NCBI GenBank assembly: GCA_036307325.1
Contig: JAXJXW010000034.1
Coordinates: 1-38,264, forward strand
Length of the DNA: 38,264 nucleotides
From: Clostridia bacterium
Lineage (GTDB): Bacteria; Bacillota; Clostridia; UMGS1883
Direction of reading: 5' to 3'
The notes under the pieces are model-generated. The model was not told the DNA's origin. It was given only the letters and a program-made list of their open reading frames with translations, and did not search any database. The position numbers and the translations under genes are program-made. Below are positions 20,632 to 36,004 of this stretch, in pieces. Position 1 is the first letter of the stretch, and the number at the start of each line of letters is the position of its first letter.

Positions 20632-20661
20632 ACATATAACCAACTAAAAAGAGGTATGATT

Positions 20662-21579
20662 ATGAATTATATCAAAGCTTCACAAGCAGCAGAAAAGTGG
20701 GGATTATCTCCTCGAAGAGTCAGACTTTTGTGTGCTCAAAACAGAATAGATGGTGTAATCAAAAAGGGCAAATTATATATGATACCTGAAAATGCACCAA
20801 AGCCAATTGATGCAAGAACACTAAAAGGAATTACAATTGCGGAGGAATTATCTCCTCTCCTTTTGAAAATTGATGCATTAAAGGCGGAGCTTGATTCTTT
20901 AAGGCCATTAACAACGGGGGAAGCAGAGAGACTCCGTGAACAGTTTATGGTTGACTTTACCTATAATTCTAATGCAATTGAGGGGAACACTCTTACATTA
21001 AAAGAAACCGCAATGGTGCTTGAGGGTATGACAATTGACCAAAAGCCTTTGAAAGACCACCTAGAAGCGGTTGGACACAGAGATGCATTTCTTTATGTTG
21101 AGGATATTGCAAAGGATACAAAAATCAGCGAATCGGTTATTAAAAATATTCACTCTCTTGTGCTTATTGATAGACCTGATGACAAAGGAACATATCGCAA
21201 AATTCCCGTAACCATTATGGGTGCATATACAGAGCCGGTTCAGCCGTATATGATTGAACCGAAAATGACAGAACTTCTTGCTGAAAACGAAAAACGCAAA
21301 AAGAAAATGCACACAATTGAGAGAATTGCAAGATTTCATCTTGAGTTTGAGGGTATTCACCCATTCATTGACGGTAACGGCAGATGTGGAAGACTTATCT
21401 TAAACCTTGATCTTATCCAAAACGGATACCCTGCAATCAATGTGAAATTCGCAGACAGAAAAAAATACTACGAAGCATTTGATGAGTTTTATAAGAACAA
21501 CTCTGCACAACTAATGATAGAATTGATTGGGGAATATGTGATTGAGAGAATAAAGCAGTATTTAGAAATAACGGATTGA
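20662..21579 (+). CDS. Fic family protein (probable AMP transferase) with an N-terminal excisionase-type HTH
   Basis: Canonical Fic motif [12 protein letters not shown]. An inhibitory-helix motif SNAIEG ([ST]xxxE[GN]) lies N-terminal to the core, indicating class II. The N-terminal ~45 aa resemble an HTH_17/Xis-type DNA-binding domain. The ATG at 20662 is 7 nt after the AAGAGG RBS. Confidence 0.88.
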
Positions 21580-23580: not shown

Positions 23581-23626
23581 TTTGTAAATCGTACATGAAT
23601 TAAACATACATGGTTGAGGTTTGAAT

Positions 23627-25510
23627 ATGAATAAAAAACAAAAAAAGATGCTTTCGAGAATTGTTCTTGCAGCAGTATTGATGATTGTTTTTGCGCTACT
23701 TCCCATTTGCGGAATACTTCGCTTTATGTTATATCTGATTCCCTATCTGGTGATTGGCCATGACATTCTATTAAAAGCGTGGAAGGGTATTCGGAACAAA
23801 CAAGTATTTGACGAGAATTTTCTTATGGCAGTGGCAACCATCGGTGCTATGATTATTGCAGTCGTGCAAAGCGGAGATTATGTTGAGGCCATTGCCGTTA
23901 TGCTTTTTTACCAAATAGGTGAGTTGTTCCAGAGCTATGCGGTAGGAAAGAGCCGAAAAAATATCAGTGAGCTGATGGATATTCGCCCTGATTATGCAAA
24001 TGTGGAGCAAGGCGGCAAGTTAATCAGATTAGACCCTGATGAGGTTTGCGTGGGAACAACTATCATTGTTCAGCCCGGTGAAAAAATCCCCATTGACGGC
24101 ATAGTTACAGAGGGTACATCAACTCTTAACACAAGTGCCCTCACGGGAGAAAGCCTGCCCCGTGATGTTAAAATCGGAGATGAAATTATCAGCGGCTGTA
24201 TAAATATGACAGGTGTCTTGAAAATGCAGACAACAAAGGAGTTTGGTGAGTCTACGGTTTCTAAGATTTTAGATCTTGTGGAGAATGCAAGCTCCAGAAA
24301 ATCCAAATCCGAAGATTTTATTTCTAAATTTGCTAAGGTGTATACCCCTGCCGTTTGTTACAGTGCCTTGGCTCTGGCAGTCCTTCCGCCGTTATTTAGT
24401 ATGCTTATTTTAAAAGTTCCTGCAAATGCAGGGCAGTGGCTGTATCGTGCTTTGTCATTCCTTGTTGCAAGCTGCCCTTGTGCTTTGGTGGTAAGTATTC
24501 CGCTAAGCTTTTTTGCAGGTATCGGCGGTGCAAGCAAGGAGGGAATACTTGTAAAAGGCTCAAACTATCTTGAAGCTCTTTCCAAAACGGGGTGCGTGGT
24601 GTTTGACAAAACAGGAACCTTGACTAAAGGCGTTTTTGAAGTCAGTGCCATACACCACAATGTGCTTTCGGAAGAAGCCTTGATTGAGTATGCCGCACTT
24701 GCCGAGAGTTCCTCCTCGCACCCCATAAGCAAAAGCCTTAAACGGGCATACGGAAAGGAAATTGAACGCAGCCGTGTAACCGATATTGAAGAAATCAGCG
24801 GTAATGGAATTATTGCCAAGGTTGACGGAAAAGCGGTTGCAGTAGGAAACAACAAGCTGATGAATAGGCTTGATATTCCCTTTACAGAGTGTCACAGTAT
24901 TGGAACTATTATTCATGTTGCAGTGGAGGGTAAATATGTAGGACATATTGTAATTTCCGATGTTTTAAAGCCCACCTCTCAAAAAGCTATTTCCGACTTG
25001 AAATCTGTCGGTGTGAAAAAAACAGTTATGCTGACAGGAGATGCCTCACAGGTGGCACAACAGGTGGCATCCTCCCTTGGAATTGATACTGTCTGCAGTG
25101 AGCTTCTGCCGGGGGATAAGGTTTCCAAGGTGGAAGAGCTGCTGGTTGAAAAACCGCCAAAATCAAAGCTTGCTTTTGTGGGTGACGGCATAAACGATGC
25201 CCCCGTTCTCTCAAGAGCCGATATTGGAATTGCAATGGGTGCTATGGGTTCAGATGCGGCCATTGAGGCGGCAGATATTGTCCTGATGGATGATGACCCT
25301 ATGAAAATTACAAAAGCTATTAAAATTTCCCGCAAATGCCTGGGAATTGTTCGCCAGAATATTATTTTTGCAATTTCCATTAAGGTAATGGCACTTATCC
25401 TTGTTGCTTTCGGTGTTGCAAATATGTGGATAGCTATTTTTGCAGATGTGGGAGTAATGGTTCTTGCCGTTTTGAATGCCATCCGTGCATTATTTGTCAA
25501 AAAACTATAA
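23627..25510 (+). CDS. Heavy-metal translocating P1B-type ATPase, Zn/Cd/Pb (P1B-2)-like
   Basis: Motifs TGES, TM6 SCPCAL, DKTGTLT, SSHPIS and GDGINDAP. TM8 carries a D-x-G (ADVGV) and TM7 a Lys, as in Zn/Cd-type pumps. There is no fused N-terminal HMA domain, which is encoded separately upstream. Confidence 0.88.
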   Translation: MNKKQKKMLSRIVLAAVLMIVFALLPICGILRFMLYLIPYLVIGHDILLKAWKGIRNKQVFDENFLMAVATIGAMIIAVVQSGDYVEAIAVMLFYQIGELFQSYAVGKSRKNISELMDIRPDYANVEQGGKLIRLDPDEVCVGTTIIVQPGEKIPIDGIVTEGTSTLNTSALTGESLPRDVKIGDEIISGCINMTGVLKMQTTKEFGESTVSKILDLVENASSRKSKSEDFISKFAKVYTPAVCYSALALAVLPPLFSMLILKVPANAGQWLYRALSFLVASCPCALVVSIPLSFFAGIGGASKEGILVKGSNYLEALSKTGCVVFDKTGTLTKGVFEVSAIHHNVLSEEALIEYAALAESSSSHPISKSLKRAYGKEIERSRVTDIEEISGNGIIAKVDGKAVAVGNNKLMNRLDIPFTECHSIGTIIHVAVEGKYVGHIVISDVLKPTSQKAISDLKSVGVKKTVMLTGDASQVAQQVASSLGIDTVCSELLPGDKVSKVEELLVEKPPKSKLAFVGDGINDAPVLSRADIGIAMGAMGSDAAIEAADIVLMDDDPMKITKAIKISRKCLGIVRQNIIFAISIKVMALILVAFGVANMWIAIFADVGVMVLAVLNAIRALFVKKL

Positions 25511-25531
25511 CATTAAGAAGGAGAATTTTCT

Positions 25532-25897
25532 ATGTCTGAAATAGAGCTTCCTCACAACCACGGGCAAGCCATGGAGCATAACTTTGACCACATGCCGAAA
25601 ACAGAGGAATTCAGCGTGATTGCCGATATATTTAAGCTTTTGGGTGATAGCAGCAGAATTAAAATTTTCTGGCTAATGTGCCATTGTGAAGAGTGCGTTA
25701 CGAACATTTCTGTCATGATGAATATGACAAGCCCTGCCGTATCACATCATCTGAAGCTGCTCCGAGGGAGCAAGCTGATTACAAGCCGAAGAGAAGGCAA
25801 AGAAGTGTACTATAAAGCGGCAAGCACCGAACAGGTACAGATGCTTCACCACGCAATTGAAAAACTGGTAAAAATCAGCTGCCCCGATAAACAGTAA
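25532..25897 (+). CDS. ArsR/SmtB family metalloregulator (CadC/CzrA-like)
   Basis: 121 aa with the wHTH signatures FKLLGDSSRIKIF and PAVSHHLKLL. It has a Cys cluster, CHCEEC, at the alpha3 position and a His-rich N-terminal tail (HNHGQAMEHNFDH). Confidence 0.88.
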   Translation: MSEIELPHNHGQAMEHNFDHMPKTEEFSVIADIFKLLGDSSRIKIFWLMCHCEECVTNISVMMNMTSPAVSHHLKLLRGSKLITSRREGKEVYYKAASTEQVQMLHHAIEKLVKISCPDKQ

Positions 25898-25942
25898 AGA
25901 GGAAACAAATTTGTTTTTGTAATTTTTTATTTGTTTTGTGAA

Positions 25943-25971
25943 TTGATTTTTGGTGAAAAATGTAGTACAAT
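25943..25971 (+). promoter_or_regulatory. SigmaA-type promoter driving the riboswitch leader
   Basis: TTGATT (25943-25948), a 17-nt spacer, then TACAAT (25966-25971). Confidence 0.6.
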
Positions 25972-26004
25972 GTAATAAATAAATTAAATATCATCACACA
26001 GAGT

Positions 26005-26216
26005 GTCGATTATGCCCCATGTGGCAAGGCTTGCCAAGGCACAATCGGTGAAAAGGGAATGGGGTGAGAATCCCCTGCGATAACTGTCGGTGTATGCTCC
26101 GAAGTTTTTATACTCGTCGGTGAAAACCGGTCATTGGGAAACTGAGAAGGCAGAGTATGAAAATGTCAGATTATCATATAATCTTATATGGAGCGAGTCA
26201 CAAGACCTGCTTTGAT
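26005..26216 (+). promoter_or_regulatory. Cobalamin (B12) riboswitch aptamer
   Basis: Conserved core elements appear in the correct order. These are GGTGAAAAGGGAAT-GGGGTGAGAATCCCC-TGCG..ACTGT (26047-26087), GTCATTGGGAAACTGAGAAGGC (26130-26151; consensus CCACTG..GGGAAGGC) and a B12-box-like GAGTCACAAGACCTGC (26195-26210). Boundaries are approximate. Confidence 0.8.
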
Positions 26217-26313
26217 ATTATCTCGTAATTGCGGCACCCGCATAGGGGTAATGTTTTTGTTTGCCTGAAAAAATTTACGGCATTCAGATTGTGATTCATC
26301 ACAGGAAAACTCA

Positions 26314-26348
26314 GCTGTGGTAATTTTTGAAATTACCGCGGCTTTTTT
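26314..26348 (+). terminator. Intrinsic terminator forming the riboswitch expression platform
   Basis: GCTGTGGTAATTT-(3-4 nt loop)-AAATTACCGCGGC gives a 13-bp stem including two G-U pairs, followed by TTTTTT. It lies about 70 nt upstream of the first ORF. Confidence 0.75.
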
Positions 26349-26419
26349 ATTTGCCTCGGTATATATGGGGGTGTAAAATAACATCAAAAAAATATATACA
26401 AAGAAAGGATTGAATTAAA

Positions 26420-29400
26420 ATGAAAACAAAACGAATTTTGAGCCTCTTGCTTGTGCTGTGTATGTTGCTTTCAACAGCACCCATTTCAGCATTTGCAGAG
26501 GAAATAACTGCTGCCGAAGCTGCAGTAATCTACCTCACCGTAAACAACAAAGGTGTAATTGCTACAGACACCGAAGGCGGCATAATGGCAAATCGTGAAG
26601 TAACCGTGACAGACAGAGATTCTAACGGGTATCTTACTTATGATGAGGCACTTAAAGCAGCACACGAGGCGTTTAACAACGAAGACGGATATATAGGTGG
26701 GGATTATGTAACAAAACTTTGGGGAGAACAAACATCTAATATATTATTTTTCATCAATAATACAGGTCTTACAGAAGGTGTTGGAACATCCATAATTTCA
26801 GCCGGAGACAGATTGACCGCATCTTTAAACAAAGATGATAAAACTTACGCAGATTGGTACACATTCTTTGATAAATCAGAAGAAACTATAGAACCAAACG
26901 AAGAAATTACCCTTACACTCAAAGGGCATCCCGGAATGACCGGAGGTGATGATACAACATTGCAGGGAATAGAAATTGGTATATGGAATGAAGGCGAATT
27001 TTCACCTATCGAAAATGCAGAAACAGACGAAGGCGGAAATATAACTATATCGTTTCCTGATACAGGCATATACTACATAACTGCGGATGGAACTGTTGAA
27101 GCAGAGGTAACTGATTATAATTTATATGATATGTCATCTATGCTGGAATCGGAAAATTCTGTACCTGTATATGGTGTAATGGATTATACAACCGGTGCAG
27201 TACAAATGGCTTATACTGCCGTAGACTATGGTGAAGGCCCATATCCTGCCGGAGAGATAAAGTATGTTGATTTCAATGAATGGGAGAATAATCAAGACGG
27301 GTATAATACATTACAGAGCAATACGCTGATTTCAAATTGCCCCATTATTGCCCCTGTTTGTATTTTAACTGTGGAAGAAAATAGCGCTGCAGGGGAAGAT
27401 ACACCGCCAACTACTGACGATGAAGATACAGGAAAACCTGACGCACCGACAGACAATGAGAAAAAAGACTATGATATTGTAATTCCCGGAGCTTTAGAAA
27501 AAATAGCAGCTAAATATATAAATAACACAGATGAATGGACAGTTATGGATATGGGGGCTTACGAAATTTATGCACCCCAAACGGAATATGCATTGACAGA
27601 TGAAGCAAGACAAGCATTCATCAATTCAGCAATCAGCACAATAAAGGACCCCTCCTGGGCTTTTTCGCCCGATACAGCTATTGATAAGGCTATTTTAGGT
27701 CTTGCTGCAATAGGAAAAAATCCCGAATTGATTTATTTGGTAAATAGCAATACAGCAATATCGGCAATAGAAAAGCTAAACGGCGTTGACAAGTCATCAA
27801 GTGCATGGAATGCTCCTTACACATTGGCAGCGTATAATCAAGGTGACTATGATACCGATAGCTATGAAAAGCAATTGGTAGATGATTTGCTTGCCGGGCA
27901 AAAAGACGACGGCAGTTGGGATGAATGGGGTACAATTGACACAACTGCCAATGTTATTGCAGGATTGTCGTTTTATAAAGACAGAGAAGATGTCAGCACC
28001 GCTATCGAAAAAGCTATAAATTATCTTTCTACACAGCAAACTGCAGAGGGAACATTCTCTGATGGTTACAACGGTTCAAACTCAAATTCGACCGCAATGG
28101 TTGTAATTGGACTTTGTGCTGCAGGCGTTGATTTGATAAATGATGACCGATTTATAAAAGGCGAAAACAACATTATTGACGGATTGCTGTCATTTTTGGT
28201 TGAAAATAAAAATGACTTTGGATTTAGTTATACGGATAAAGAAGCTGTAAACAACGGAGCTACCGAACAAAGCTTCCGCGCCTTAATCGCCTTTATGCAG
28301 ACCATCAAAACAGGTGGAGCTTACAATGTGTACGATTTCAGCGGCAGCGAGTTCACTCCTGCCCGTGAGAAAAGTAATGGCTCATCATCTTCTGCACCCT
28401 CTGAGCCAAGTGGTGATAATATTACTGTTACAATGACAATAAAGGCAGACACAGGCTATTGGCTTAAAAATTACACTACAACCATTCCAAAGGAAGGCGC
28501 AACTGTTTATCACGCATTTGTAAAGGTGTGCAGTGCAAACTCCATAACACATCAGGGTGCTGCACAGGGATATGTTTCATCAATAACTAAGGGCAACAAA
28601 ACTCTTGCCGAATTTGACAAGGGCGACAATTCAGGCTGGCTTTATAAAGTAAACGGCAAATTGCCCACGGTAGGACTTACCGAATTTCCTATAAAAGACA
28701 AAGATACCATTGTTTGGTATTATGCGGAGGATTGGACAAAGGATCCGTCAGCAGGGCATTATGGCGGTTCATCAAGTGTCAGCCAAAAGACAGAAAATAA
28801 TTCTGTTGTAACAACAACAAAGGTTTCAGGGGAAAAGGCAACTGTAACCGCAACGGAAAGCAGTATTAAAGATGCAATTTCAAATGCTGAAAAGAACAAT
28901 ACCGCATCTATTGTTATAGCTCCCACTGACACAAAAAATGCAACTGATATTACACTTGATATTCCTGCAAATTCAGTAAAAGAAATTGCTGAAAGTAAAG
29001 GCTTAACACTTTCTGTTGAAACAACTGCAGGTAATGTGGCTATTTCAAACGAAGCATTAAATGCCATTGCAGAGCAAATCGGAGATAAGGCATTAAATGT
29101 TGTGATTAAAACAAAGCTTGCTGATGAAGCTTCTGTCAGTGAAAAAATAATTTCAAAGGAAGAACTTAAAAATGCATCAATCGTAGAGATTACAATTACT
29201 TCAGGGGACACAAGTATTCACACATTTGGCGGAAATAGCTTGAGTGTTAATGTTCCCGTAAATGAAAGCACTCACAAAACCGGTAAAACCTATAAGGTGC
29301 ACATTATTTCAGCAGACGGAAGTGTTGAAACAGCTTATGGCAAATGCACAGAAAAAGACGGAAAATTATCTGTAGAAGTGCAAACTAATCATTTGTCCAC

Positions 29401-29971
29401 CTTTTTTGTTACAGACGAAGAAAAATCTGCATTTACTGATATTTTAAATCATTGGGCATCTGATGCTATAGAATATGTTTACAATCATTCTATTATGCGG
29501 GGCGTAAGTGAAACTGCGTTTGCTCCTGATGATACTATGACAAGAGCAATGCTTGTAACCGTGCTTTACAGATTGGAAAACCCCACGGAAAAAGCAAAAG
29601 CACATAGCTTTACAGATGTTGAAGATGGAGCTTGGTATGCAGATGCGGTTAGCTGGGCTTTTGAAAACGCAATGGTAAGTGGCGTAACCGAAACGGAATT
29701 TGCCCCGAATGCAGATATTACCCGTGAGCAAATGGCAGCAGTAATGCACCGCTATGCACAGTATAAAAAGCAAGATACATCTATCGGGGAGGACACAAAT
29801 ATCCTCTCATATACAGATGCGGAGGAAATCTCTGAATATGCAATACCTGCTATGCAGTGGATAGTAGGCGCAGGGCTTATGAAGGGCGAAACAGAAGCTA
29901 CCATCAATCCCAAAAACAATTCTACACGCGCACAAGTATCTGCAATCCTTATGCGTTATTTAGAACAGTAA
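26420..29971 (+). CDS. SLH-anchored surface protein with an alpha/alpha-toroid (prenyltransferase/terpene-cyclase-like) domain, a DUF4430 (transcobalamin beta-like) domain and 3 SLH repeats
   Basis: 1183 aa with a signal peptide (..APISAFA|EE). Toroid repeats include ILGLAAIGKNPE, QKDDGSWDEWG, QQTAEGTFSDG and ATEQSFRALIAF. The DUF4430 signature is ..GDNSGWLYKVNGKLPTVG..IKDKDTIVWYY. Three C-terminal SLH repeats begin FTDILNHWASDAIEY.., FTDVEDGAWYADAV.. and YTDAEEISEYAIPAMQW... Confidence 0.85.
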   Translation: MKTKRILSLLLVLCMLLSTAPISAFAEEITAAEAAVIYLTVNNKGVIATDTEGGIMANREVTVTDRDSNGYLTYDEALKAAHEAFNNEDGYIGGDYVTKLWGEQTSNILFFINNTGLTEGVGTSIISAGDRLTASLNKDDKTYADWYTFFDKSEETIEPNEEITLTLKGHPGMTGGDDTTLQGIEIGIWNEGEFSPIENAETDEGGNITISFPDTGIYYITADGTVEAEVTDYNLYDMSSMLESENSVPVYGVMDYTTGAVQMAYTAVDYGEGPYPAGEIKYVDFNEWENNQDGYNTLQSNTLISNCPIIAPVCILTVEENSAAGEDTPPTTDDEDTGKPDAPTDNEKKDYDIVIPGALEKIAAKYINNTDEWTVMDMGAYEIYAPQTEYALTDEARQAFINSAISTIKDPSWAFSPDTAIDKAILGLAAIGKNPELIYLVNSNTAISAIEKLNGVDKSSSAWNAPYTLAAYNQGDYDTDSYEKQLVDDLLAGQKDDGSWDEWGTIDTTANVIAGLSFYKDREDVSTAIEKAINYLSTQQTAEGTFSDGYNGSNSNSTAMVVIGLCAAGVDLINDDRFIKGENNIIDGLLSFLVENKNDFGFSYTDKEAVNNGATEQSFRALIAFMQTIKTGGAYNVYDFSGSEFTPAREKSNGSSSSAPSEPSGDNITVTMTIKADTGYWLKNYTTTIPKEGATVYHAFVKVCSANSITHQGAAQGYVSSITKGNKTLAEFDKGDNSGWLYKVNGKLPTVGLTEFPIKDKDTIVWYYAEDWTKDPSAGHYGGSSSVSQKTENNSVVTTTKVSGEKATVTATESSIKDAISNAEKNNTASIVIAPTDTKNATDITLDIPANSVKEIAESKGLTLSVETTAGNVAISNEALNAIAEQIGDKALNVVIKTKLADEASVSEKIISKEELKNASIVEITITSGDTSIHTFGGNSLSVNVPVNESTHKTGKTYKVHIISADGSVETAYGKCTEKDGKLSVEVQTNHLSTFFVTDEEKSAFTDILNHWASDAIEYVYNHSIMRGVSETAFAPDDTMTRAMLVTVLYRLENPTEKAKAHSFTDVEDGAWYADAVSWAFENAMVSGVTETEFAPNADITREQMAAVMHRYAQYKKQDTSIGEDTNILSYTDAEEISEYAIPAMQWIVGAGLMKGETEATINPKNNSTRAQVSAILMRYLEQ
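27466..28340 (+). other. Alpha/alpha-toroid domain segment of the 1183-aa protein (approximate)
   Basis: Repeated helical-hairpin motifs with D/N-G-(G/S)-W/F turns (DDGSWDEWG, AEGTFSDG). Paralogous to residues ~30-300 of the next ORF. Confidence 0.6.
28421..28735 (+). other. DUF4430-type domain segment (approximate)
   Basis: The segment runs ITVTMTIKADTG...SGWLYKVNGKLPTVGLTEFPIKDKDTIVWYYAEDW. It aligns by eye with the C-terminal domain of ORF 31647-32405 (SGWMYKVNGWFPNYGCSRYQLKEGDKVEWVY). Confidence 0.7.
29432..29968 (+). other. Three tandem S-layer homology (SLH) repeats
   Basis: Each repeat is ~55-60 aa and begins F/Y-TD, with the conserved G...G....F.P....TR(A/E)(Q/M) pattern. Confidence 0.85.
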
Positions 29972-30042: not shown

Positions 30043-31632
30043 ATGAAGAAATCACTGTCATTTTTAATGTGCTTGATAATAATTTTCAGTCTGTCATCAC
30101 ATATCTTTGCGGCGGATATTGACGCAGTAAACAGTGCAGTGAATGACACTGCAAAATATCTGTATGAATCCGTGCCGGATCCTCAGGTCGGCTCCATAGG
30201 CGGAGAATGGGTAGTTTTGGGCCTTGCAAGAAGCGGAGCGGATATTCCTGATGAATATTTTGAAAATTATTATCAGACAGCAGAAAAATATATTAAGGAC
30301 TGCGGCGGAGTACTCCATGAAAAGAAATACACGGAATATTCAAGGGTTATACTTGCCTTAACTGCCATTGGGAAAAATCCTGCTGAGGTGGCGGGCTATA
30401 ACCTTATAGCACACCTTGAAGATTATGATAAAACAGTATGGCAAGGGATAAACGGTGCCATATTTGCTTTAATCGCTTTAGATAGCGGAGGCTTTATTCC
30501 TCAAAGCACAGTCAGAGAAAAATATGTCAATTATATTTTGGAAAAGCAAAATGATGATGGTGGTTGGGCTATGTCAGGAGATACTGCAGATGCTGATGTA
30601 ACGGCAATGGCATTGCAGGCACTCGCTAAGTATCAAGAAAATGAAAGGGTAAAAACTGCAATAGAAAAAGCACTTTTGCTTATGTCTCGCAGTCAGAACG
30701 AAAACGGGGGCTTTTCAAGTCAGGAAGCTGAATACTCCGAAAGCTGTGCACAAATGATTGTTGCCCTTTGCGAACTGGGAATATCCCCGGAGGATTCTCG
30801 CTTTATCAAAAACGGGAATACAATACTTGATTGTATGCTTACATACTATGAAAAAGGCAATGGATTTAAGCATACAAAAGACGGTACGGCAAATCAAATG
30901 GCGACTGAGCAATGCTTTTATTCACTTGCGGCGATAAAACGCTTCAATGAAGGGAAAAACAGTCTTTACAGTATGAGTGATGCAATTTCTGTTTCAGATA
31001 GCGGCATGGCAGAATACGGTCTTTACGGGAAAAACCCCGATGTTCAGAAAATGAATGTAGTACATGCGGGAAAAACCTTTGAAGATATAAGAGAACATAG
31101 TAACAAATCAGCAATTGAAGCACTTGCAGAGAAAAACATAATCAATGGCAAAACAGAAAACCTGTTTGACCCTCAAAGCACAATGACAAGGGCAGAGTTT
31201 GCCACAATAGTTGTGAGAGGGCTTGGTTTGCCTGTAAAAGGGGAATCCTTCTTTGCAGATGTGGCGGAGAATGATTGGTTTTTTGATTATGTAAATACTG
31301 CGTACTCCTATGGCATAATAAAGGGAGTATCGGATACCGAATTTAATCCCAACGGAACAATTACCCGTGAGGAAGCCGCCGTAATGGCTGCAAGGGCGGC
31401 AACGCTCTGTGGCATGAATACAGAGGTTGAAGTATTTGAGGCACGGGATATTTTAGCGGGCTTTTTGGATTATGTAAAGGCTTCTGATTGGGCGATAGGT
31501 GCTCTTGCCTTCTGTTATGATAAGGGAATACTTTCCGATGATACAATGGAAATAAAGCCGAAGGAAGCTGTTTCAAGAGCAGAAATTGCACAGATGCTTT
31601 ACAATATGCTTTCGCTGTCAAGACTCATTTAG
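30043..31632 (+). CDS. SLH-anchored alpha/alpha-toroid protein (toroid-only paralogue of the upstream gene)
   Basis: 529 aa with a signal peptide (..SSHIFA|AD). Toroid motifs include GGEWVVLGLARSG, ILALTAIGKNPAE, QNDDGGWAMSG, QNENGGFSS and ATEQCFYSLAAI. SLH repeats run from about nt 31078 (FEDIREHSNKSAIEALAE.., FADVAENDWFFDYV.., FLDYVKASDWAIGAL..). Confidence 0.85.
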   Translation: MKKSLSFLMCLIIIFSLSSHIFAADIDAVNSAVNDTAKYLYESVPDPQVGSIGGEWVVLGLARSGADIPDEYFENYYQTAEKYIKDCGGVLHEKKYTEYSRVILALTAIGKNPAEVAGYNLIAHLEDYDKTVWQGINGAIFALIALDSGGFIPQSTVREKYVNYILEKQNDDGGWAMSGDTADADVTAMALQALAKYQENERVKTAIEKALLLMSRSQNENGGFSSQEAEYSESCAQMIVALCELGISPEDSRFIKNGNTILDCMLTYYEKGNGFKHTKDGTANQMATEQCFYSLAAIKRFNEGKNSLYSMSDAISVSDSGMAEYGLYGKNPDVQKMNVVHAGKTFEDIREHSNKSAIEALAEKNIINGKTENLFDPQSTMTRAEFATIVVRGLGLPVKGESFFADVAENDWFFDYVNTAYSYGIIKGVSDTEFNPNGTITREEAAVMAARAATLCGMNTEVEVFEARDILAGFLDYVKASDWAIGALAFCYDKGILSDDTMEIKPKEAVSRAEIAQMLYNMLSLSRLI

Positions 31633-31646
31633 GAAGTGATTTTAAA

Positions 31647-32405
31647 ATGGCAAAACACAAAAACAAAATTATTGCAGGCTTAATTATTGCAGCAGCTTTG
31701 GCATTTGCATTTTTGTGGGGCGGCAATTCTCCCGCCATCAAAAATGAGAATCTGCCGGAAAAGGAAAGCGCAAATATAACCGAGACCCAGGCAGAGCCTT
31801 CCTCAGAATTGCCTGAAAAGGAGGAAGAAAAAAATGATGATTTGCAAGCCTTTGTCAATGAACCCTCCCACACTCAGGACAGTATTGAGGAAAGCGAAGC
31901 AGCTGTAAAAGATGCCCCGCAAAAAGATGAATATCAAACCGAGCCTATACCTGAGGGGAAACCTGTACCTATTGAGCCTGAAAATACAGTTATTTCTCAT
32001 AAGGAACTAACCTGTACAATGTCAGTCAGATGTGATGCAATACTTAAGAATATTGCTTTGCTTGATAAGGCAAAGGTGGAGCTTGTGCCGAAAGACGGCA
32101 TAATCTATGGGGAACAATCGGTTACCTTCTATGAGGGAGAAAGTGTTTTTAATGTGCTTGTGCGTGAAATGAAGCGTAACAAAATACACATGAAATTTGA
32201 AAACACACCCGTTTATAACAGTGCATATATAGAAGGCATTGGTAATTTGTATGAGTTTGACTGCGGCGAGCTTTCCGGCTGGATGTATAAGGTTAACGGT
32301 TGGTTCCCCAATTACGGCTGCTCCCGCTATCAGCTCAAAGAGGGCGACAAGGTTGAGTGGGTATATACCTGCGATTTGGGAGCAGATGTAGGCAAGGAAC
32401 GGTAA
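31647..32405 (+). CDS. Membrane-anchored DUF4430 (transcobalamin beta-like) domain protein
   Basis: 252 aa with an N-terminal TM anchor (IIAGLIIAAALAFAFLWGG) and an acidic, Pro/Glu-rich linker. The C-terminal DUF4430 domain starts at about nt 32007 (..ELSGWMYKVNGWFPNYGCSRYQLKEGDKVEWVYTCDLG). Confidence 0.8.
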   Translation: MAKHKNKIIAGLIIAAALAFAFLWGGNSPAIKNENLPEKESANITETQAEPSSELPEKEEEKNDDLQAFVNEPSHTQDSIEESEAAVKDAPQKDEYQTEPIPEGKPVPIEPENTVISHKELTCTMSVRCDAILKNIALLDKAKVELVPKDGIIYGEQSVTFYEGESVFNVLVREMKRNKIHMKFENTPVYNSAYIEGIGNLYEFDCGELSGWMYKVNGWFPNYGCSRYQLKEGDKVEWVYTCDLGADVGKER

Positions 32406-32413
32406 ATGATCAA

Positions 32414-33301
32414 ATGAATGAGTTTAAAACATATCACCCTATTGTTAATTTTGTGTATTTCATATTTGTAATTGGATTTTCATGTGTTTTTATGCACCCT
32501 ATATGCCTTTTGATTTCTCTTTTATCGGGATTCACATATTCTGTAATGCTCAGTGGAAAAGGGTCAGTCAAGAAAAAACTTATTTACATGATACCAATAC
32601 TGCTTTTTGCGGCACTTATAAATCCCGCATTTAACCACGAGGGTGTAACAATTATCAAATATCTGCCAAACGGCAATCCGCTGACTTTGGAATCTGTTGT
32701 ATACGGGCTTGCGGCGGCAACAATGATTGTGAGCGTCATATGCTGGTTTAGTTGCTATACGAATGTTATGACAAGTGATAAATTTATTTACTTGTTTGGG
32801 AAGGTTATTCCGTCAATGTCACTTATTATATCTATGACACTTCGGTTTGTACCAAGATTTTCCTCGCAGCTTAAGGTAGTAACAAATGCTCAGCGGTGTC
32901 TGGGGCGGGATGTGTCCGGCGGCAGTATAGTGCAGAGGGCAAAACACGGACTTACCATTCTTTCCATAATGACAACATGGGCACTGGAGAACGCAATAGA
33001 AACTGCGGACAGTATGAAATCCCGTGGATACGGTCACCCGGGAAGAACGGCGTTCTCAATCTTTACCTTTGATAAAAGAGATAAAAAAGCTCTTTTATGT
33101 ATTGTGATATTGGGAATATATACACTTGCAGGCAGCTTCTCTGGAGAAATGCACTTCAGATATTTTCCTTCACTGCAAGTAAGCGGTTTTTCCATATTTG
33201 GGATTAGTGTATTTGTTGCATATCTTGCACTTTGTATATGCCCCATAATAATTGAAGCTTGGGAGGTGATAAAATGGAAAGCTATAAAATCGAAAACTTA
33301 A
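32414..33301 (+). CDS. ecfT: ECF transporter transmembrane (T) component, EcfT/CbiQ family
   Basis: Multi-TM protein whose coupling-helix motifs end in RG/LG (NAQRCLGRD and ENAIETADSMKSRGYG). The ATG at 32414 is 8 nt after the upstream stop. The track extension (32357) overlaps the previous gene. Confidence 0.8.
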   Translation: MNEFKTYHPIVNFVYFIFVIGFSCVFMHPICLLISLLSGFTYSVMLSGKGSVKKKLIYMIPILLFAALINPAFNHEGVTIIKYLPNGNPLTLESVVYGLAAATMIVSVICWFSCYTNVMTSDKFIYLFGKVIPSMSLIISMTLRFVPRFSSQLKVVTNAQRCLGRDVSGGSIVQRAKHGLTILSIMTTWALENAIETADSMKSRGYGHPGRTAFSIFTFDKRDKKALLCIVILGIYTLAGSFSGEMHFRYFPSLQVSGFSIFGISVFVAYLALCICPIIIEAWEVIKWKAIKSKT

Positions 33302-35925
33302 GCTTTGTATATCCCAACAGAGCTAATAAAGCACTTGATAATATTAGTATTACCGTCAATCAGGGTGAATTTATAACCTTATGCGGCAAATCAGGCTGCG
33401 GAAAGACAACACTTCTTCGGCTTCTCAAAAGCTCTCTTTCCCCATATGGAGCTTTAAGCGGAAGCATATATTTTGAAGGGAGTATTTTATCCGAAATAGA
33501 TTCAAAAGACCAAGCCGCAAAAATCGGCTTTGTAATGCAAGCGTGCGATAATCAGATTGTGACGGATAAGGTGTGGCATGAGCTTGCCTTCGGTTTGGAA
33601 AGCCTGGGATATTCCACGCCCGAAATCCGAACAAGAGTATCTGAAATGGCATCATTTTTCGGTATAGAGAATTGGTTTCATAAAAAAGTAACGGAGCTTT
33701 CAGGGGGTCAGAAGCAGCTTTTAAATCTTGCCTCGGTTATGGTTATGCAGCCAAGCGTGCTTATTCTGGATGAGCCTACAAGTCAGCTTGACCCTATTGC
33801 GGCACAGGAGTTTTTAAAAACACTGGAAAAGATAAATCATGAGCTTGGTACAACGGTGATTTTATCGGAACACCGCCTTGAGGAGGCTTTCCCAATCTCC
33901 CACAGGATAGTTGTTATGGATAAGGGCAAAATTATTGCAGATGGCACTGTGCAAAAGGTCGGCGAGATATTAAAATCACAAAATCACCATATGTATTTAG
34001 CGCTTCCTGCGCCAATGCGTGTTTACGGCGCATTGGAGAATGGCCATGAATATCCCATTACCGTTCGTGACGGAAGAGCATGGCTTGAAAACTATTCAGA
34101 AAGCCATATGCTGAACAGTGGGGCAATACCAAAAACAATCGGTGATACTTTTTCACCCACTGTTATTGAAGTGAAAGACGCCTTCTTCAGATATGAAAAA
34201 AATTCGCCTGATGTTATAAAAGGATTGAATGTGCAAATAAACAGGGGAGAGCTGTTTTCAATTGTCGGCGGAAACGGAACAGGCAAAACAACGGCACTGT
34301 CGCTTATAAGCGGGCTTAATGCACCCCAGCGGGGAGAAGTTTTAATAAACGGCGAAAGCATTTCTAAGGTGAAAAATTTATATAACGGTATTTTAGGAGT
34401 ACTGCCCCAAAATCCCCAGAGCGTGTTTGTTAAAAAAACAGTTTATCTTGATCTCTTAGAAATACTGTCGGATAAAAAAATATCAAAAGAAGAAAAAGAA
34501 AGCAGGATCAGGAATATATCTCAGCTTTGCAGAATAGAAAATTTGCTTGACTGCCACCCGTATGATTTGTCAGGCGGTGAGCAGCAGCGTGCGGCACTTG
34601 CAAAGGTGCTTCTGATGTCACCCGAAATTCTTTTGCTTGACGAGCCAACAAAGGGGCTTGACGCACATTTTAAACAGATTTTTGCCGATATTTTAGCCGA
34701 TTTAAAATCTAATGGTGTCACCATTGTGGCGGTGTCCCACGATATAGAATTTTGTGCGGAATTTTCTGACAGATGTGCTATGTTTTTTGATGGGAATATT
34801 ACATCTGTGGGTAAACCGAGAGAATTTTTTGCAGGGAAGAATTTTTATACCACCTCCGCAAACAGAATGGCAAGAACAATTCTTCCAAAGGCTGTGCTTG
34901 CAGAGGATATAATACTTGCCTGCGGCGGCAAAGTGCGGGATAGACAAAACAGAAAGGCTTTATCAATCACCTTGCCTGAAAATGATAAAACCGAAAAACA
35001 TAAGGTAAATAATAAAAAATTTCCCATGTCAAGAATTGTCATGGGAAGCATATTTGTTTTGTTATTTTTGATCATATCAGTTTTTCAGCTTTTAGCTAAA
35101 AAACCTTTATCCGCAGACATTTTTCAGTTGATTTCCATTGTGGAAATTGCGGGAGCTTTTATCTGCTTTTTCCCCCAAAGAGAATTTGGCACAGAGTTTA
35201 TCGGAAAGCCGCAAAATAAACAAAGCCTATCAAAACGAACAGCAGTGGCAGCACTTCTCATACTGCTTGCAATACCGCTTACTATCTACATTGGAATATT
35301 TTATTTAGGTGACAGAAAGTATTATTTTATCAGCCTTTTAATTATCATTGAAACTATGATACCCTTTTGTATGGTCTTTGAAAGCAGAAAACCTCAGGCG
35401 AGAGAGCTTGTTATTATAAGTGTTCTTTGTGCTATTGCAGTTGCGGGCAGGACGGCATTTTTTATGGTTCCGCAATTTAAGCCTGTTGTGGCACTTGTAA
35501 TAATTGCAGGAGTTTGTTTCGGCGGTGAAACGGGATTTTTGGTTGGTGCGGTAACGGGCTTTGTATCTAACTTCTTTTTCGGGCAAGGCCCTTGGACCCC
35601 ATGGCAAATGTTTGCTTTCGGTATAATAGGATTTATTGCGGGCATACTTTTCCGCAAAGGCTTTTTGCGAAAAACAAAACTGTCCTTGTGTATTTTCGGA
35701 GCATTTGCCACACTTGTTATATACGGAGGCATTATGACCCCAGCAACTGTAATTATGTCCCAGGATAAGCTGAATTTAGCAATGATTAAGGCGGCCTTTA
35801 TATCCGGCATACCCTTTGATTTAATTCATGCTGCATCAACAGCATTTTCCCTCTGGTTTATCTCTGAACCAATGATTGATAAATTGGATAGAATTAAAGT
35901 GAAGTATGGCTTGATTGAGAGATAA
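33274..35925 (+). CDS. Fusion of two ECF-type ABC ATPase domains (EcfA-EcfA') with a C-terminal polytopic membrane domain resembling an ECF S component
   Basis: The first ATPase domain has GKSGCGKTT, LSGGQKQ and LILDEPTSQLD. The second has GGNGTGKTT, LSGGEQQ and LLLDEPTKGLD. From nt 35026 there are ~9-10 predicted TM helices, including a Gly-rich S-component-like core (GVCFGGETGFLVGAVTGFVSNFFFGQGPWTPWQMFAFGIIGFIAG). The GGGAGGTG RBS lies before the ATG at 33274. The gene overlaps ecfT by 28 nt. Confidence 0.8.
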   Translation: MESYKIENLSFVYPNRANKALDNISITVNQGEFITLCGKSGCGKTTLLRLLKSSLSPYGALSGSIYFEGSILSEIDSKDQAAKIGFVMQACDNQIVTDKVWHELAFGLESLGYSTPEIRTRVSEMASFFGIENWFHKKVTELSGGQKQLLNLASVMVMQPSVLILDEPTSQLDPIAAQEFLKTLEKINHELGTTVILSEHRLEEAFPISHRIVVMDKGKIIADGTVQKVGEILKSQNHHMYLALPAPMRVYGALENGHEYPITVRDGRAWLENYSESHMLNSGAIPKTIGDTFSPTVIEVKDAFFRYEKNSPDVIKGLNVQINRGELFSIVGGNGTGKTTALSLISGLNAPQRGEVLINGESISKVKNLYNGILGVLPQNPQSVFVKKTVYLDLLEILSDKKISKEEKESRIRNISQLCRIENLLDCHPYDLSGGEQQRAALAKVLLMSPEILLLDEPTKGLDAHFKQIFADILADLKSNGVTIVAVSHDIEFCAEFSDRCAMFFDGNITSVGKPREFFAGKNFYTTSANRMARTILPKAVLAEDIILACGGKVRDRQNRKALSITLPENDKTEKHKVNNKKFPMSRIVMGSIFVLLFLIISVFQLLAKKPLSADIFQLISIVEIAGAFICFFPQREFGTEFIGKPQNKQSLSKRTAVAALLILLAIPLTIYIGIFYLGDRKYYFISLLIIIETMIPFCMVFESRKPQARELVIISVLCAIAVAGRTAFFMVPQFKPVVALVIIAGVCFGGETGFLVGAVTGFVSNFFFGQGPWTPWQMFAFGIIGFIAGILFRKGFLRKTKLSLCIFGAFATLVIYGGIMTPATVIMSQDKLNLAMIKAAFISGIPFDLIHAASTAFSLWFISEPMIDKLDRIKVKYGLIER

Positions 35926-35976: not shown

Positions 35977-36004
35977 GTAGGGGCGATTCGTGAATCGCCC
36001 CTAC
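35977..36004. terminator. Hairpin between the convergent ECF operon and copA
   Basis: GTAGGGGCGATT-cgtg-AATCGCCCCTAC is a GC-rich 12-bp perfect stem. There is no clean U-tract on either strand. Confidence 0.5.

Follow-up and report, generated by a model that had tools for sequence, protein, structure and literature searches.

The question raised by this locus is whether a single wall-anchored polypeptide, gene 1, which joins an alpha/alpha toroid to a DUF4430 domain, is a bacterial counterpart of the mammalian B12 carriers, and what it would do at the cell surface. The window, that is, the whole stretch of DNA analysed, consisted of 38,264 nt of a Clostridia bacterium contig. The gene occupied one uninterrupted frame, and its parts occurred in the following order.

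26420..29971, + strand: gene 1, 1183-aa surface protein (ORF list, segmentation, Pfam)
26420..26494, + strand: signal peptide (aa 1-25; hydrophobic core aa 4-22; cleavage motif between AFA and EE; hydropathy scan, sequence)
26522..26830, + strand: N-region module 1 (aa ~35-137), probable divergent SLBB/DUF4430-like beta-grasp (AF2, Foldseek, Pfam)
26855..27112, + strand: N-region module 2 (aa ~146-231), all-beta Ig-like sandwich (AF2 strands, Foldseek)
27395..27466, + strand: acidic Pro/Thr linker EDTPPTTDDEDTGKPDAPTDNEKK (aa 326-349; sequence)
27467..28375, + strand: alpha/alpha toroid (aa 350-652), 12 helices, equivalent of the transcobalamin alpha-domain (AF2, Foldseek, profile)
28376..28414, + strand: Ser-rich flexible interdomain linker NGSSSSAPSEPSG (aa 653-665; sequence, pLDDT)
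28415..28750, + strand: DUF4430/SLBB beta-grasp (aa 666-777), equivalent of the transcobalamin beta-domain (Pfam, hhalign)
28751..29419, + strand: beta-rich spacer/stalk (aa 778-1000), without a Pfam match
29429..29968, + strand: three SLH repeats (aa 1004-1183), non-covalent cell-wall anchor (Pfam SLH, PDB Sap SLH)

This architecture had been read correctly in the original prediction, and segmentation and Pfam located each landmark that it quoted, including the three SLH repeats (Pfam E 5.1e-28; E 1e-9 against the Sap SLH structures 6BT4/3PYW). Pfam matched the DUF4430 domain at aa 693-769 (E 7.8e-17), with 61.9 bits where the cutoff is 23.8; in TCN proteins, this domain is the C-terminal one (PMC4350170). 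The ~230-aa beta-rich region was real, with no Pfam family found for aa 778-1000, and could be recognised in only 9 of 79 relatives. The ~300-aa N-terminal region was real as well, but a probable second SLBB-like module within it had been overlooked.

This N-region is probably an SLBB-like beta-grasp followed by an Ig-like module. Module 1 showed a beta-beta-alpha-beta-beta topology in AF2, and Foldseek matched it to haptocorrin 4KKI (rmsd 3.3 Å over 116 columns, prob 1.00), to intrinsic factor 3KQ4, and to the DUF4430 structure 3U7Z, all matches having E values of only 4e-3 to 2e-2. Its comparison with Pfam DUF4430 gave E 0.031, and the SLBB comparison by hhalign a probability of 1.4%; module 1 is thus probably, with moderate support, a divergent SLBB-like beta-grasp. 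The strands of module 2 were modelled at pLDDT 85-97 and matched the Ig-fold.

The likeness to the B12 carriers was evaluated using an AlphaFold model of residues 346-777 (pLDDT 91.8, pTM 0.78). The 12 toroid helices were modelled at pLDDT >90, and the sole stretch with pLDDT <50 (model residues 308-312) lay within the Ser linker. A Foldseek search of the PDB revealed that the best 15 matches were all transcobalamin (TC), haptocorrin (HC), or intrinsic factor (IF), at E 4e-10 to 9e-8, whereas terpene cyclases ranked below them at 1e-6. The carrier alignments extended over both the toroid and DUF4430, in agreement with the predicted alpha-then-beta order with a flexible linker as in TC and IF. 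Superposition on holo-transcobalamin, proposed earlier as a check, gave a divided result: the carriers were the best matches, but the global superposition of the apo model on the holo-carriers was poor (TMq 0.32-0.43, TM ~0.4, rmsd ~21 Å). With 305 + 112 residues, the pTM corresponds to an interdomain predicted error of ~7 Å, so the two domains appear to be placed non-randomly in the model.

At the sequence level, the bacterial DUF4430 profile could be aligned collinearly with human TC residues 309-409 using hhalign (probability 69.7%, E 4.2e-5). Y718, E731-F732, and W740 of gene 1 align with TC Y362, E375-F376, and W377; these invariant Y, EF, and W residues are presumably cobalamin contacts of the TC beta-domain. 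HMMER profiles of the toroid and of DUF4430 did not reach TC, IF, or HC in the PDB, and Pfam Cobalamin_bind (PF01122) had no match to gene 1. The toroid of the single gene-1 protein matched Pfam SQHop_cyclase_C weakly (E 6e-6, just under the cutoff), its family profile matched squalene-hopene cyclase 1GSZ (E 2e-10), and in the profile search of the PDB class II terpene cyclases were nearer to its sequence than the TC alpha-domain was. A search for a lower-axial His found none in the toroid; since intrinsic factor and haptocorrin also have no axial His (PMC11107200), its absence does not refute a carrier. The original prediction had named either a relative or a convergent analogue of the carriers. 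Foldseek and hhalign favoured the former, and the segment from toroid through linker to DUF4430 is homologous to the mammalian B12 carriers, not a convergent analogue of them.

Analysis of the region directly 5' of gene 1 revealed control elements that had been missed previously and that, together with the ECF importer and the conservation described below, form the strongest evidence.

25943..25971, + strand: sigma-70-like promoter candidate TTGATT-17-TACAAT (consensus scan, 9/12 matches, weak)
26010..26228, + strand: cobalamin riboswitch aptamer, RF00174 (Rfam)
26313..26353, + strand: intrinsic terminator, 14-bp stem then TTTTTTATTTG, the riboswitch expression platform (terminator scan, sequence read)

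The aptamer matched the full model 1-189 with a score of 44.6 bits (gathering score 31.5; E 3.6e-8) and was the sole Rfam match within the window. The family CM R1 found it again at 26010..26228, as its only match in the 38-kb window, R1 being derived from that same sequence. The terminator follows the aptamer, precedes the RBS/ATG at 26420, and was the only terminator-like site in 25850-26450. The Rfam score supports the control of gene 1 by a B12-sensing riboswitch, which ties the gene to corrinoids.

Downstream of gene 1, four further genes and a hairpin could be identified.

30043..31632, + strand: gene 2, 529-aa secreted toroid with three SLH repeats, paralogue of the gene-1 toroid (Pfam, BLASTP, signal peptide)
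31647..32405, + strand: gene 3, 252-aa membrane-tethered DUF4430 (Pfam, TM prediction, sequence)
32357..33301, + strand: gene 4, ECF transporter T component, probable true start ATG 32414 (Pfam CbiQ, start-codon inspection)
33259..35925, + strand: gene 5, fused EcfA-EcfA' ATPases, extra TM helices, and CbrT-like S component, probable true start ATG 33274
35977..36004, no strand assigned: GC-rich hairpin between the convergent operon end and a copA-like gene (sequence)

Gene 2 had weak Pfam Prenyltrans/SQHop matches and a clear SLH match (E 1e-34), and its toroid shared 31% identity with that of gene 1 (BLASTP, E 8e-26). Gene 3 consisted of a TM helix (aa 5-23), an acidic/Pro-rich tether of ~100 aa, and an SLBB domain (aa ~120-250; Pfam DUF4430 E 1.5e-18) with 30% identity to the gene-1 DUF4430 (E 9e-15). 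Genes 2 and 3 together are a second, split toroid/DUF4430 pair, paralogous to gene 1, which the original prediction, confined to the fused protein, had passed over. Gene 4 matched Pfam CbiQ (E 1.8e-7) and had six hydrophobic helices. Gene 5 scored 353.6 bits with the NCBIfam model ECF_ATPase_1, whose cutoff is 315, and also matched Pfam ECF_trnsprt; the best PDB match of its S region was 6FNP_A, the CbrT of the B12 transporter ECF-CbrT (E 3.3e-9). The five genes were packed with gaps of 71, 14, -49, and -43 nt, gene 1 being the first cistron; as judged from this layout, gene 1 is predicted to be co-transcribed with the B12 importer. The hairpin at 35977..36004 did not pass the T-run terminator scan.

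Comparison across Clostridia revealed that the toroid is followed by SLBB within one ORF in 78/79 genomes. A riboswitch was located ≤450 nt 5' of the gene in 58 of 66 testable genes (88%; median 165 nt), a rate that may be slightly inflated because the family CM was trained on members of the same family; Rfam detected a cobalamin riboswitch in 8/9 relatives tested independently. At least 6 kb of downstream sequence was available for 52 loci; the second pair and ECF genes lay 3' of the fused gene in 30-34 of these, while in 18-22 neither ECF genes nor a second pair could be recognised next to it. Many relatives were giant multi-domain surface proteins of 2,000-3,700 aa. The carrier-like fold, the riboswitch, the operon, and the conservation across Clostridia thus identify gene 1 as a carrier homologue within a B12 regulon.

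Capture of B12-type cofactors at the cell surface is the most likely role of gene 1. With a probability of roughly 70%, it is a secreted, SLH-anchored carrier homologue that captures corrinoids as the outermost receptor of an uptake operon repressed by B12. At low intracellular cobalamin, the riboswitch would permit read-through of the terminator and the five genes would be made. Three SLH repeats and the beta-rich stalk would keep the 1183-aa protein in the zone of the wall or S-layer, where the toroid and the C-terminal SLBB/DUF4430, linked by the flexible Ser linker, would sandwich one corrinoid. The ligand may then be handed inward, likely via the split pair, in which the SLH-anchored gene-2 toroid and the membrane-tethered gene-3 SLBB could assemble around it in trans. 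It would finally arrive at the CbrT-like S component and be imported with ATP by the ECF transporter of genes 4-5. TC-alpha and TC-beta expressed separately assemble only when cobalamin is present (PMC5599065), so a split pair is plausible, as is an open apo state. We infer the corrinoid binding with its one-ligand sandwich geometry, the relay from gene 1 through the split pair to the ECF transporter, and any role for the N-terminal SLBB-like module.

The 18-22 loci without a recognisable neighbouring importer, and the giant size of many relatives, would also fit a corrinoid sink for sequestration or storage, with no obligatory hand-off to an ECF transporter and with the N-terminal SLBB-like module adding a second site. 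Mammalian haptocorrin is largely a scavenger or store (PMC5599065), and BtuJ of Bacteroides has been proposed as an extracellular reservoir. However, gene 1 heads a compact operon with an importer, and a riboswitch that is OFF at high B12 is the signature of an acquisition gene. A pure sink is therefore unlikely here, although storage and delivery are not mutually exclusive.

The toroid/SLBB proteins might instead capture heme or another non-corrin tetrapyrrole and supply it to the ECF transporter, a role proposed for Lsa1840/Lsa1839 of Lactobacillus sakei. The lsa1836-1840 operon, with its matching alpha-like protein, beta-like protein, and ECF transporter, is the only bacterial toroid/SLBB and ECF system studied experimentally, and it was linked to heme, not B12: its deletion cut 57Fe-hemin uptake 5-8 fold at 5-40 µM, complementation restored uptake, and overexpression raised it (bioRxiv 10.1101/864751). 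That study never assayed B12 and saw the effect only at micromolar hemin, and its authors noted that their S component has no cobalamin-binding residues; the L. sakei system may thus be a diverged offshoot. Here, a riboswitch sensing cobalamins, not heme, lies directly 5' of the gene, as in the 58/66 relatives, and hemin did not compete with B12 for CbrT, the best structural relative of the S component (PMC5997447). A heme function is thus very unlikely.

There is only a slim chance that the domains pair differently, with either the N-terminal SLBB-like module or the gene-3 SLBB as partner of the gene-1 toroid, and the C-terminal DUF4430 binding a corrinoid alone. Isolated TC-beta binds CNCbl and cobinamide by itself (PMC5599065), the apo model is unlike holo-TC, and the passages of Burroughs et al. 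2007 on these proteins place the toroid on either side of SLBB in bacteria. An SLBB-like fold is also predicted at aa ~35-137, and standalone N-region homologues are encoded next to toroid-DUF4430 genes. Against this, the toroid precedes SLBB across a short linker in the 78/79 genomes, while the N-region could be recognised in only 11 of the 79, and its SLBB evidence is weak (E 4e-3 to 3e-2; hhalign 1.4%).

An envelope enzyme, terpene-cyclase/prenyltransferase-like or (alpha/alpha)6 glycoside-hydrolase-like with DUF4430 as an accessory binding module, is extremely improbable: the nearest solved sequence relatives of the toroid are squalene-hopene cyclase and drimenyl-diphosphate synthase (E ~1e-10 to 1e-8), and terpene cyclases as well as unsaturated glucuronyl hydrolases are among the Foldseek matches, but those sequence matches span only ~70-100 residues of helical-repeat signature, TC/HC/IF outrank every enzyme in the fold search, the catalytic Asp-rich motifs by which the original prediction would have recognised a cyclase (DxDD, DDxxD) were absent from the gene-1 protein and not conserved across 21 homologues, the toroid has one QW-like motif only and no His, isoprenoid diphosphate substrates are not present outside the cell where the protein is secreted, and B12-riboswitch control of such an enzyme would have no rationale.

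The surface receptor favoured here can be compared with several known systems. Transcobalamin, intrinsic factor, and haptocorrin (2BB5, 2V3N, 4ZRP, 2PMV, 3KQ4, 4KKI) share with gene 1 the order of 12-helix toroid, linker, and beta-grasp, are likewise secreted and tied to B12 acquisition, and have a beta-domain related at the profile level. They differ in that gene 1 has no Cobalamin_bind match, no disulfide pattern (one toroid Cys), no axial His, a 7-residue insertion, DKGDNSG, between the conserved EF and W, and a poor global superposition (TM ~0.4). The gene-1 module sits in an 1183-aa wall-anchored multidomain protein, whereas the carriers are soluble and ~400 aa long, and its proposed delivery is to an ECF transporter instead of an endocytic receptor.

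The BtuJ, BtuH, BtuK, and BtuG proteins of Bacteroides, which feed BtuB, are also riboswitch-controlled, high-affinity surface corrinoid binders that feed a transporter in gut bacteria, but they have unrelated folds (jellyroll, novel globular, beta-propeller) and are lipoproteins on the outer membrane. BtuH is not a DUF4430 protein. The L. sakei lsa1836-1840 operon resembles genes 2-5 in its alpha-like toroid, beta-like DUF4430, and ECF T/A/S set, but it contains only the split pair and lacks both a fused receptor and SLH; no B12 riboswitch is reported for it. ECF-CbrT of Lactobacillus delbrueckii (6FNP; Santos et al. 2018), the closest solved relative of the gene-5 S component (E 3.3e-9), has been shown to import both cobalamin and cobinamide without competition from hemin (PMC5997447). 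Each of its S, T, A, and A' components is a protein of its own, with a shared common module, whereas gene 5 is an operon-dedicated A-A'-S fusion with extra TM helices. In the usual description, ECF transporters work without an extracytoplasmic binding protein, whereas up to three such proteins are co-encoded here.

Gene 1 belongs to the bacterial transcobalamin-like SLBB clade (PF14478 DUF4430; Burroughs, Balaji, Iyer, and Aravind 2007, Biol Direct 2:4), which comprises thousands of such proteins. The passages of that paper on the clade describe signal peptides, surface anchoring, and SLBB fused to an alpha/alpha toroid, with an N-terminal toroid as in the Desulfotomaculum example, and propose the clade as the origin of the animal carriers (PMC1796856). 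Those passages do not include riboswitch control, SLH anchoring, a fused-plus-split pair, a CbrT-type ECF partner, or the N-region module, and contain the terms 'riboswitch', 'SLH', and 'S-layer' 0 times each. They do contain, made independently, the same functional prediction of cooperative B12 binding by toroid-SLBB fusions (PMC1796856). The concept is thus already published, and gene 1 is a further member of this previously predicted family.

Analysis of the forward strand revealed one uninterrupted open reading frame of 1183 codons at 26420–29971 (gene 1), encoding a surface protein in which a toroid is followed by a DUF4430 domain, the SLBB beta-grasp, and by SLH repeats. Segmentation of the translated sequence placed all landmarks of the layout described in the original prediction where it had located them. 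The residues of the gene 1 protein were assigned as follows.

Residues 1–25: signal peptide, with its end at AFA/EE
Residues 26–322: N-terminal region
Residues 326–349: acidic Pro/Thr linker, EDTPPTTDDEDTGKPDAPTDNEKK
Residues 350–652: helical segment, the toroid
Residues 653–665: Ser linker, NGSSSSAPSEPSG
Residues 666–777: DUF4430 segment
Residues 778–1000: beta-rich stretch, the stalk
Residues 1004–1183: three SLH repeats

The DUF4430 segment matched Pfam PF14478 with an E value of 7.8e-17 (61.9 bits against a cutoff of 23.8), and alignment of 14 members of the bacterial DUF4430 family (alignment A2) revealed invariant Y, EF, G, SGW, Y and D. The SLH repeats were detected as three tandem stretches (Pfam 97.2 bits, E 5.1e-28), and this region also matched the SLH structures of Bacillus anthracis Sap with an E value of 1e-9 over approximately 170 aa. 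A single-sequence search with the toroid gave a borderline match to SQHop_cyclase_C (25.9 bits against a cutoff of 26.1), and a 22-sequence profile of the toroid-DUF4430 family reached squalene-hopene cyclase with an E value of 2e-10. The 223-aa stalk (28751–29419, forward strand) gave no family match in Pfam. With DUF4430 above threshold, a signal peptide together with SLH repeats, and a toroid in the same polypeptide, gene 1 showed every tested feature of the bacterial transcobalamin-like SLBB clade (PF14478).

The Rfam search returned a single RNA match across the whole 38-kb window, a cobalamin riboswitch, and the leader of gene 1 consisted of the following elements.

25943–25971: promoter-like site, 5' of the riboswitch
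26010–26228, forward strand: cobalamin riboswitch (RF00174), 44.6 bits in Rfam against a gathering score of 31.5
26313–26343, followed by a T-run: intrinsic terminator, 3' of the aptamer and before the RBS and ATG, the sole one in the leader

From this order of promoter, aptamer, terminator and RBS, the leader is predicted to be a classical transcriptional OFF switch, in which low B12 would lead the riboswitch to allow read-through. This genomic context, the riboswitch together with the operon behind it, is the strongest evidence for a corrinoid role of gene 1, and none of it had entered the original prediction.

The structure of gene 1 residues 346–777 was modelled using AF2, which gave a mean pLDDT of 91.8 and a pTM of 0.78. 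The model consisted of twelve helices with pLDDT above 90 followed by the beta-grasp, and the sole stretch with pLDDT below 50 fell in the Ser linker. When the model was compared with 350,542 PDB chains using Foldseek, ranks 1–15 were occupied by bovine, human and rat transcobalamin (TC), haptocorrin (HC) and intrinsic factor (IF), the mammalian B12 carriers, with E values of 4e-10 to 8.6e-8 and a probability of 1.00. These alignments extended over approximately 470 columns and included both the toroid and the beta-grasp domains. Ranked below the carriers were drimenyl-diphosphate synthase, other class II terpene cyclases and unsaturated glucuronyl hydrolases, all of which matched the toroid only, with E values of 1e-6 or weaker. 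Further, hhalign comparison of the 14-member DUF4430 alignment (A2) against human TC residues 309–409, a reference sequence that matched 5NO0, 4ZRP and 2BB5 exactly, gave a collinear alignment of 75 columns with 69.7% probability and an E value of 4.2e-5. In this alignment the invariant Y718, E731-F732 and W740 of gene 1 paired with Y362, E375-F376 and W377 of TC, residues which we take to line the cobalamin pocket.

The kinship to the carriers could be seen by hhalign and Foldseek only. Among PDB sequences, TC, IF and HC were not reached by phmmer with the full gene 1 protein, by a profile of residues 346–777 (alignment A1, 21 of the 29 homologues collected) or by the DUF4430-only A2 profile, and Cobalamin_bind (PF01122) was absent from gene 1 in a Pfam search up to E 10. 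Because the sequence criterion fails, gene 1 was left outside the eukaryotic Cobalamin_bind family as a distant homologue only. Gene 1 is a homologue of the TC/IF/HC carriers and not a convergent analogue of them. The original prediction, which had read the protein as a bacterial relative or convergent analogue of the B12 carriers in the wall zone, was right in direction as to the carrier relationship, the corrinoid link and the location on the evidence of Foldseek, hhalign, the riboswitch and the SLH repeats, and its option of convergence falls. A His as lower axial ligand, which the prediction had proposed to look for, was absent from the gene 1 toroid (0 His). According to PMC11107200, this His is specific to TC and mostly missing in IF and HC, so its absence is no argument against a carrier.

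Global superposition of the apo AF2 model on the holo-carriers was poor (TMq 0.32–0.43, rmsd approximately 21 Å in Foldseek). The toroid alone (approximately 305 of the 432 residues) would account for an estimated pTM of about 0.64, and the value of 0.78 requires an interdomain predicted error of about 7 Å. The model thus suggests that the toroid and DUF4430 hold a defined, non-random placement, which differs from that in the holo-carriers. According to Bloch et al. (2017, PMC5599065), TC-alpha and TC-beta expressed apart assemble only with cobalamin; since this assembly needs the ligand, an apo model unlike the holo form is expected and does not refute the proposal. One corrinoid may be sandwiched between the gene 1 toroid and DUF4430, as the original prediction proposed.

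Four further genes follow gene 1 on the forward strand, with gaps of 71, 14, −49 and −43 nt. Genes 2 and 3 form a pair at 30043–32405.

30043–31632, forward strand: gene 2, a 529-aa secreted toroid protein with three SLH repeats, 31% identical to the gene 1 toroid (E 8e-26)
31647–32405, forward strand: gene 3, a 252-aa DUF4430 protein with an N-terminal TM helix and an acidic/Pro-rich tether of approximately 100 aa, 30% identical to the gene 1 DUF4430 (E 9e-15)
32357–33301, forward strand: gene 4, an ECF T component (Pfam CbiQ, E 1.8e-7)
33259–35925, forward strand: gene 5, an 888-aa fusion of EcfA, EcfA', four extra TM helices (aa 587–706) and a CbrT-like S component

The ATPases of gene 5 scored 353.6 bits against ECF_ATPase_1 (cutoff 315), and the top solved relative of its S region was 6FNP chain A, the CbrT of ECF-CbrT (E 3.3e-9). 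ECF-CbrT moves cobalamin and cobinamide in proteoliposomes, and hemin is no inhibitor (PMC5997447). A TC-like alpha/beta pair is therefore present twice, fused in gene 1 and split in genes 2 and 3, before a B12-type ECF importer, and the split proteins are paralogues of the fused modules. The mechanical starts of gene 4 (GTG, 32357) and gene 5 (TTG, 33259) lie 49 and 43 nt inside the genes before them, and the in-frame ATG codons at 32414 and 33274, respectively, are more likely to be the true starts judging from the sequence; gene 4 would then begin a few nt past the gene 3 stop, and a 28-nt overlap between genes 5 and 4 would be left. The gene 5 type of fusion recurs in most related loci. 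[quoted passage not shown]

Between the operon end and a convergent copA-like gene, a perfect GC-rich hairpin, GTAGGGGCGATTC-GTGA-ATCGCCCCTAC, was observed at 35977–36004; it has no T-run and fails the intrinsic-terminator scan. Metal-homeostasis genes lie on both sides of the B12 operon (23621–25897 and 36038–38260). One flank carries a 629-aa heavy-metal P-type ATPase lacking an N-terminal HMA domain together with an ArsR-family regulator, and the other carries the convergent P-type ATPase of CopA-like type, with its HMA domain at the C-terminus (aa 675–734), where it is unusual. Elsewhere in the window, a Fic-domain protein is encoded approximately 5 kb upstream of the B12 operon (20656–21579, forward strand), a 280-aa ORF without a Pfam match is present at 16998–17840 (reverse strand), and SpoIIR at 5020–5652 (reverse strand) marks the organism as an endospore-forming Firmicute.

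The conservation of the locus was assessed in other genomes. Two distant homologues (52% and 40% identity) belong to the same operon, again preceded by this riboswitch, and of 7 further loci 6 gave an Rfam match to it, making 8 of 9 tested relatives overall. A scan of one genome per species with two peptide patterns detected a relative in 199 species-level genomes. Seventy-nine loci were kept and were counted by ORF calls and BLASTP against the window modules; every one came from Clostridia/Bacillota living in the gut, the rumen or anaerobic habitats, and the closest was that of an uncultured Ruminococcus MAG (75% identity). The toroid and then SLBB occurred in one ORF in 78 of the 79 loci, and SLH repeats in 65. 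A covariance model made from nine Rfam-validated aptamers gave 64 matches over the 79 loci and the single, expected match in the window; among the 66 genes with their 5' region on the contig, 58 had the riboswitch no more than 450 nt before the ORF start, at a median distance of 165 nt. Where at least 6 kb of downstream sequence was available (52 loci), a second toroid was present in 33, a second SLBB in 34, EcfT in 30 and a CbrT-like S component in 31. Moreover, searching 1.84 billion representative proteins with a profile returned 13,476 clusters at E ≤1e-3 and 2,157 at E ≤1e-30; most of the best 150 of the 13,476 clusters covered both domains in the order toroid-then-DUF4430, in host proteins of up to approximately 3,400 aa. 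On these counts the toroid-DUF4430 architecture is common rather than exceptional, and membership in the B12 regulon is a trait of the whole family. The parts of the system, their homologies, the co-regulation signal and their conservation are thus matters of observation.

Several variants were seen among the relatives. In 13 of them the second toroid is not a separate protein but forms a C-terminal extension of the gene 1 homologue. Eight testable loci had no riboswitch detected within 450 nt upstream (L027, L042, L046, L048, L059, L060, L063 and L047); seven of the eight are variants with the C-terminally fused second toroid, several of them giants of more than 3,000 aa, and these loci may be under another form of control, or their leader may lie farther away or be more divergent. 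Another seven (L055, L057, L065, L067, L068, L069 and L077) encode proteins of 3,000–3,300 aa with the toroid-SLBB near the C-terminus after approximately 2,500 aa, each directly behind a cobalamin riboswitch. The locus of an Aminipila sp. MAG (L049, 849–20183) contains four cobalamin-riboswitch matches, two different TC-like surface genes and a split-pair/ECF operon, a dense B12-acquisition island of 21 kb.

In the mechanism that we propose as the likely one, the SLH-anchored TC-like receptor encoded by gene 1 would be displayed on the cell at low B12 with the corrinoid bound between its toroid and SLBB. The ligand would then go inward, plausibly via the SLH-anchored gene 2 toroid and the long-tethered gene 3 SLBB, which would assemble around it in trans, and would arrive at the CbrT-like S component for ATP-driven import. 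The corrinoid binding, its stoichiometry and geometry, and the direction of transfer in this scheme are what we infer. The operon may also tentatively be read as a corrinoid relay in two tiers through the Gram-positive wall, to which we assign a probability of approximately 0.3. An outer fused receptor, perhaps with a second, N-terminal SLBB site, would pass the ligand to a split pair assembling only around the corrinoid, and this pair would dock onto the fused EcfAA'-CbrT importer. If this relay is true, it would provide the first example of extracytoplasmic binding proteins that serve an ECF transporter, and would be a present-day bacterial prototype of the B12 carriers that animals acquired.

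Sequestration or storage of corrinoids in place of delivery is an unlikely explanation, for which the 18–22 of 52 testable loci without adjacent ECF genes or a second pair could be cited, as could the existence of giant relatives. It is quite improbable that the toroid/SLBB proteins capture heme or another tetrapyrrole for the ECF transporter. Deletion of lsa1836-1840 in L. sakei, the only experimentally studied bacterial operon with toroid/SLBB and ECF genes, cut 57Fe-hemin uptake 5–8 fold at 5–40 µM (bioRxiv 10.1101/864751), but that work did no B12 test and mentions no riboswitch, and at the window locus corrinoids are favoured both by the cobalamin riboswitch and by an S component that resembles CbrT.

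A different pairing of domains would involve the N-terminal region of gene 1 (26495–27385, approximately 300 aa), which recurs in 11 of the 79 relatives. Its homologues were also found as standalone secreted proteins of 225–258 aa (L082, 6001–6678; L084, 6001–6777), encoded immediately 5' of toroid-DUF4430 genes; in one locus ECF genes come next, and a riboswitch lies on the 5' side. Judged by this recurrence, the region appears to be a partner module that is either fused or adjacent. Its model (pLDDT 78.6, pTM 0.75) opened with a beta-beta-alpha-beta-beta unit, after which came an Ig-like sandwich. Foldseek matches with a probability of at least 0.99 and low rmsd were limited to the HC beta-domain (rmsd 3.3 Å over 116 columns), the IF beta-domain and the Ruminococcus gnavus DUF4430 structure 3U7Z, with weak E values of 4e-3 to 2e-2; by sequence, the comparison with DUF4430 gave a Pfam E value of 0.031 and an hhalign probability of 1.4%. 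A second, divergent SLBB-like module in this region is thus probable, not established. That this module, or gene 3, is the true partner of the gene 1 toroid in place of the gene 1 DUF4430 seems very improbable.

The toroid is most improbably a cell-envelope enzyme with DUF4430 as an accessory, given its missing catalytic motifs, the secretion signal of the protein and the cobalamin-riboswitch regulation. DxDD and DDxxD motifs were absent from the gene 1 toroid and none was conserved in 21 homologues, the toroid contained 0 His and 1 Cys against the Asp/Cys/His triad that binds Zn, and all cyclase and prenyltransferase models were sub-threshold in gene 1 (SQHop_cyclase_C 25.9/26.1, Prenyltrans 15.2/26.5 and TIGR01787 22/322.7 bits). 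For want of these motifs, of His and of more than one Cys, the objection that the original prediction had raised against itself, an active cyclase or prenyltransferase with Asp-rich motifs, does not apply.

The SLBB superfamily was defined by Burroughs, Balaji, Iyer and Aravind (2007, PMC1796856), who predicted cooperative B12 binding by bacterial toroid-SLBB fusions. As a prediction, the central idea of the original prediction thus dates back 19 years; gene 1 is of a bacterial TC-like kind already predicted computationally, and the concept is not new. BtuH, the B12-binding lipoprotein of Bacteroides, was first considered as a DUF4430 protein and was dropped as a lead, since the papers describe it as an unrelated, novel fold without predicted domains or any known structural homologue; BtuH2 (7BIZ) was absent among the Foldseek matches listed for the gene 1 model. 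In the literature searched, which included few subscription journals, no description could be found of the duplicated fused-plus-split pair, the SLH anchoring, the N-region partner module or the fused EcfAA'-CbrT partner. The same search, with subscription journals mostly outside it, returned only Burroughs 2007 and the work on L. sakei for this operon type, and no description of the riboswitch linkage; an earlier account of any of these features may exist elsewhere. According to a 2026 review (PMC13616437), what surface B12 binders do in Firmicutes is 'entirely uncharacterized'.

Corrinoid capture outside the membrane by Gram-positive gut and rumen bacteria is essentially unstudied, and the locus offers a concrete, expressible and riboswitch-controlled system with a bearing on gut competition for B12. 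It makes testable the cobamide binding and selectivity of bacterial TC-like proteins, the ligand-driven assembly of split alpha and beta modules, and the descent of the animal B12 carriers from such proteins, as proposed in 2007. To our knowledge, ECF transporters are generally thought to need no extracytoplasmic binding proteins. The ECF-CbrT of Lactobacillus is modular, whereas gene 5 encodes a dedicated polypeptide in which the energising and S parts of the ECF system are fully fused and extra helices are added, which is unusual by comparison.
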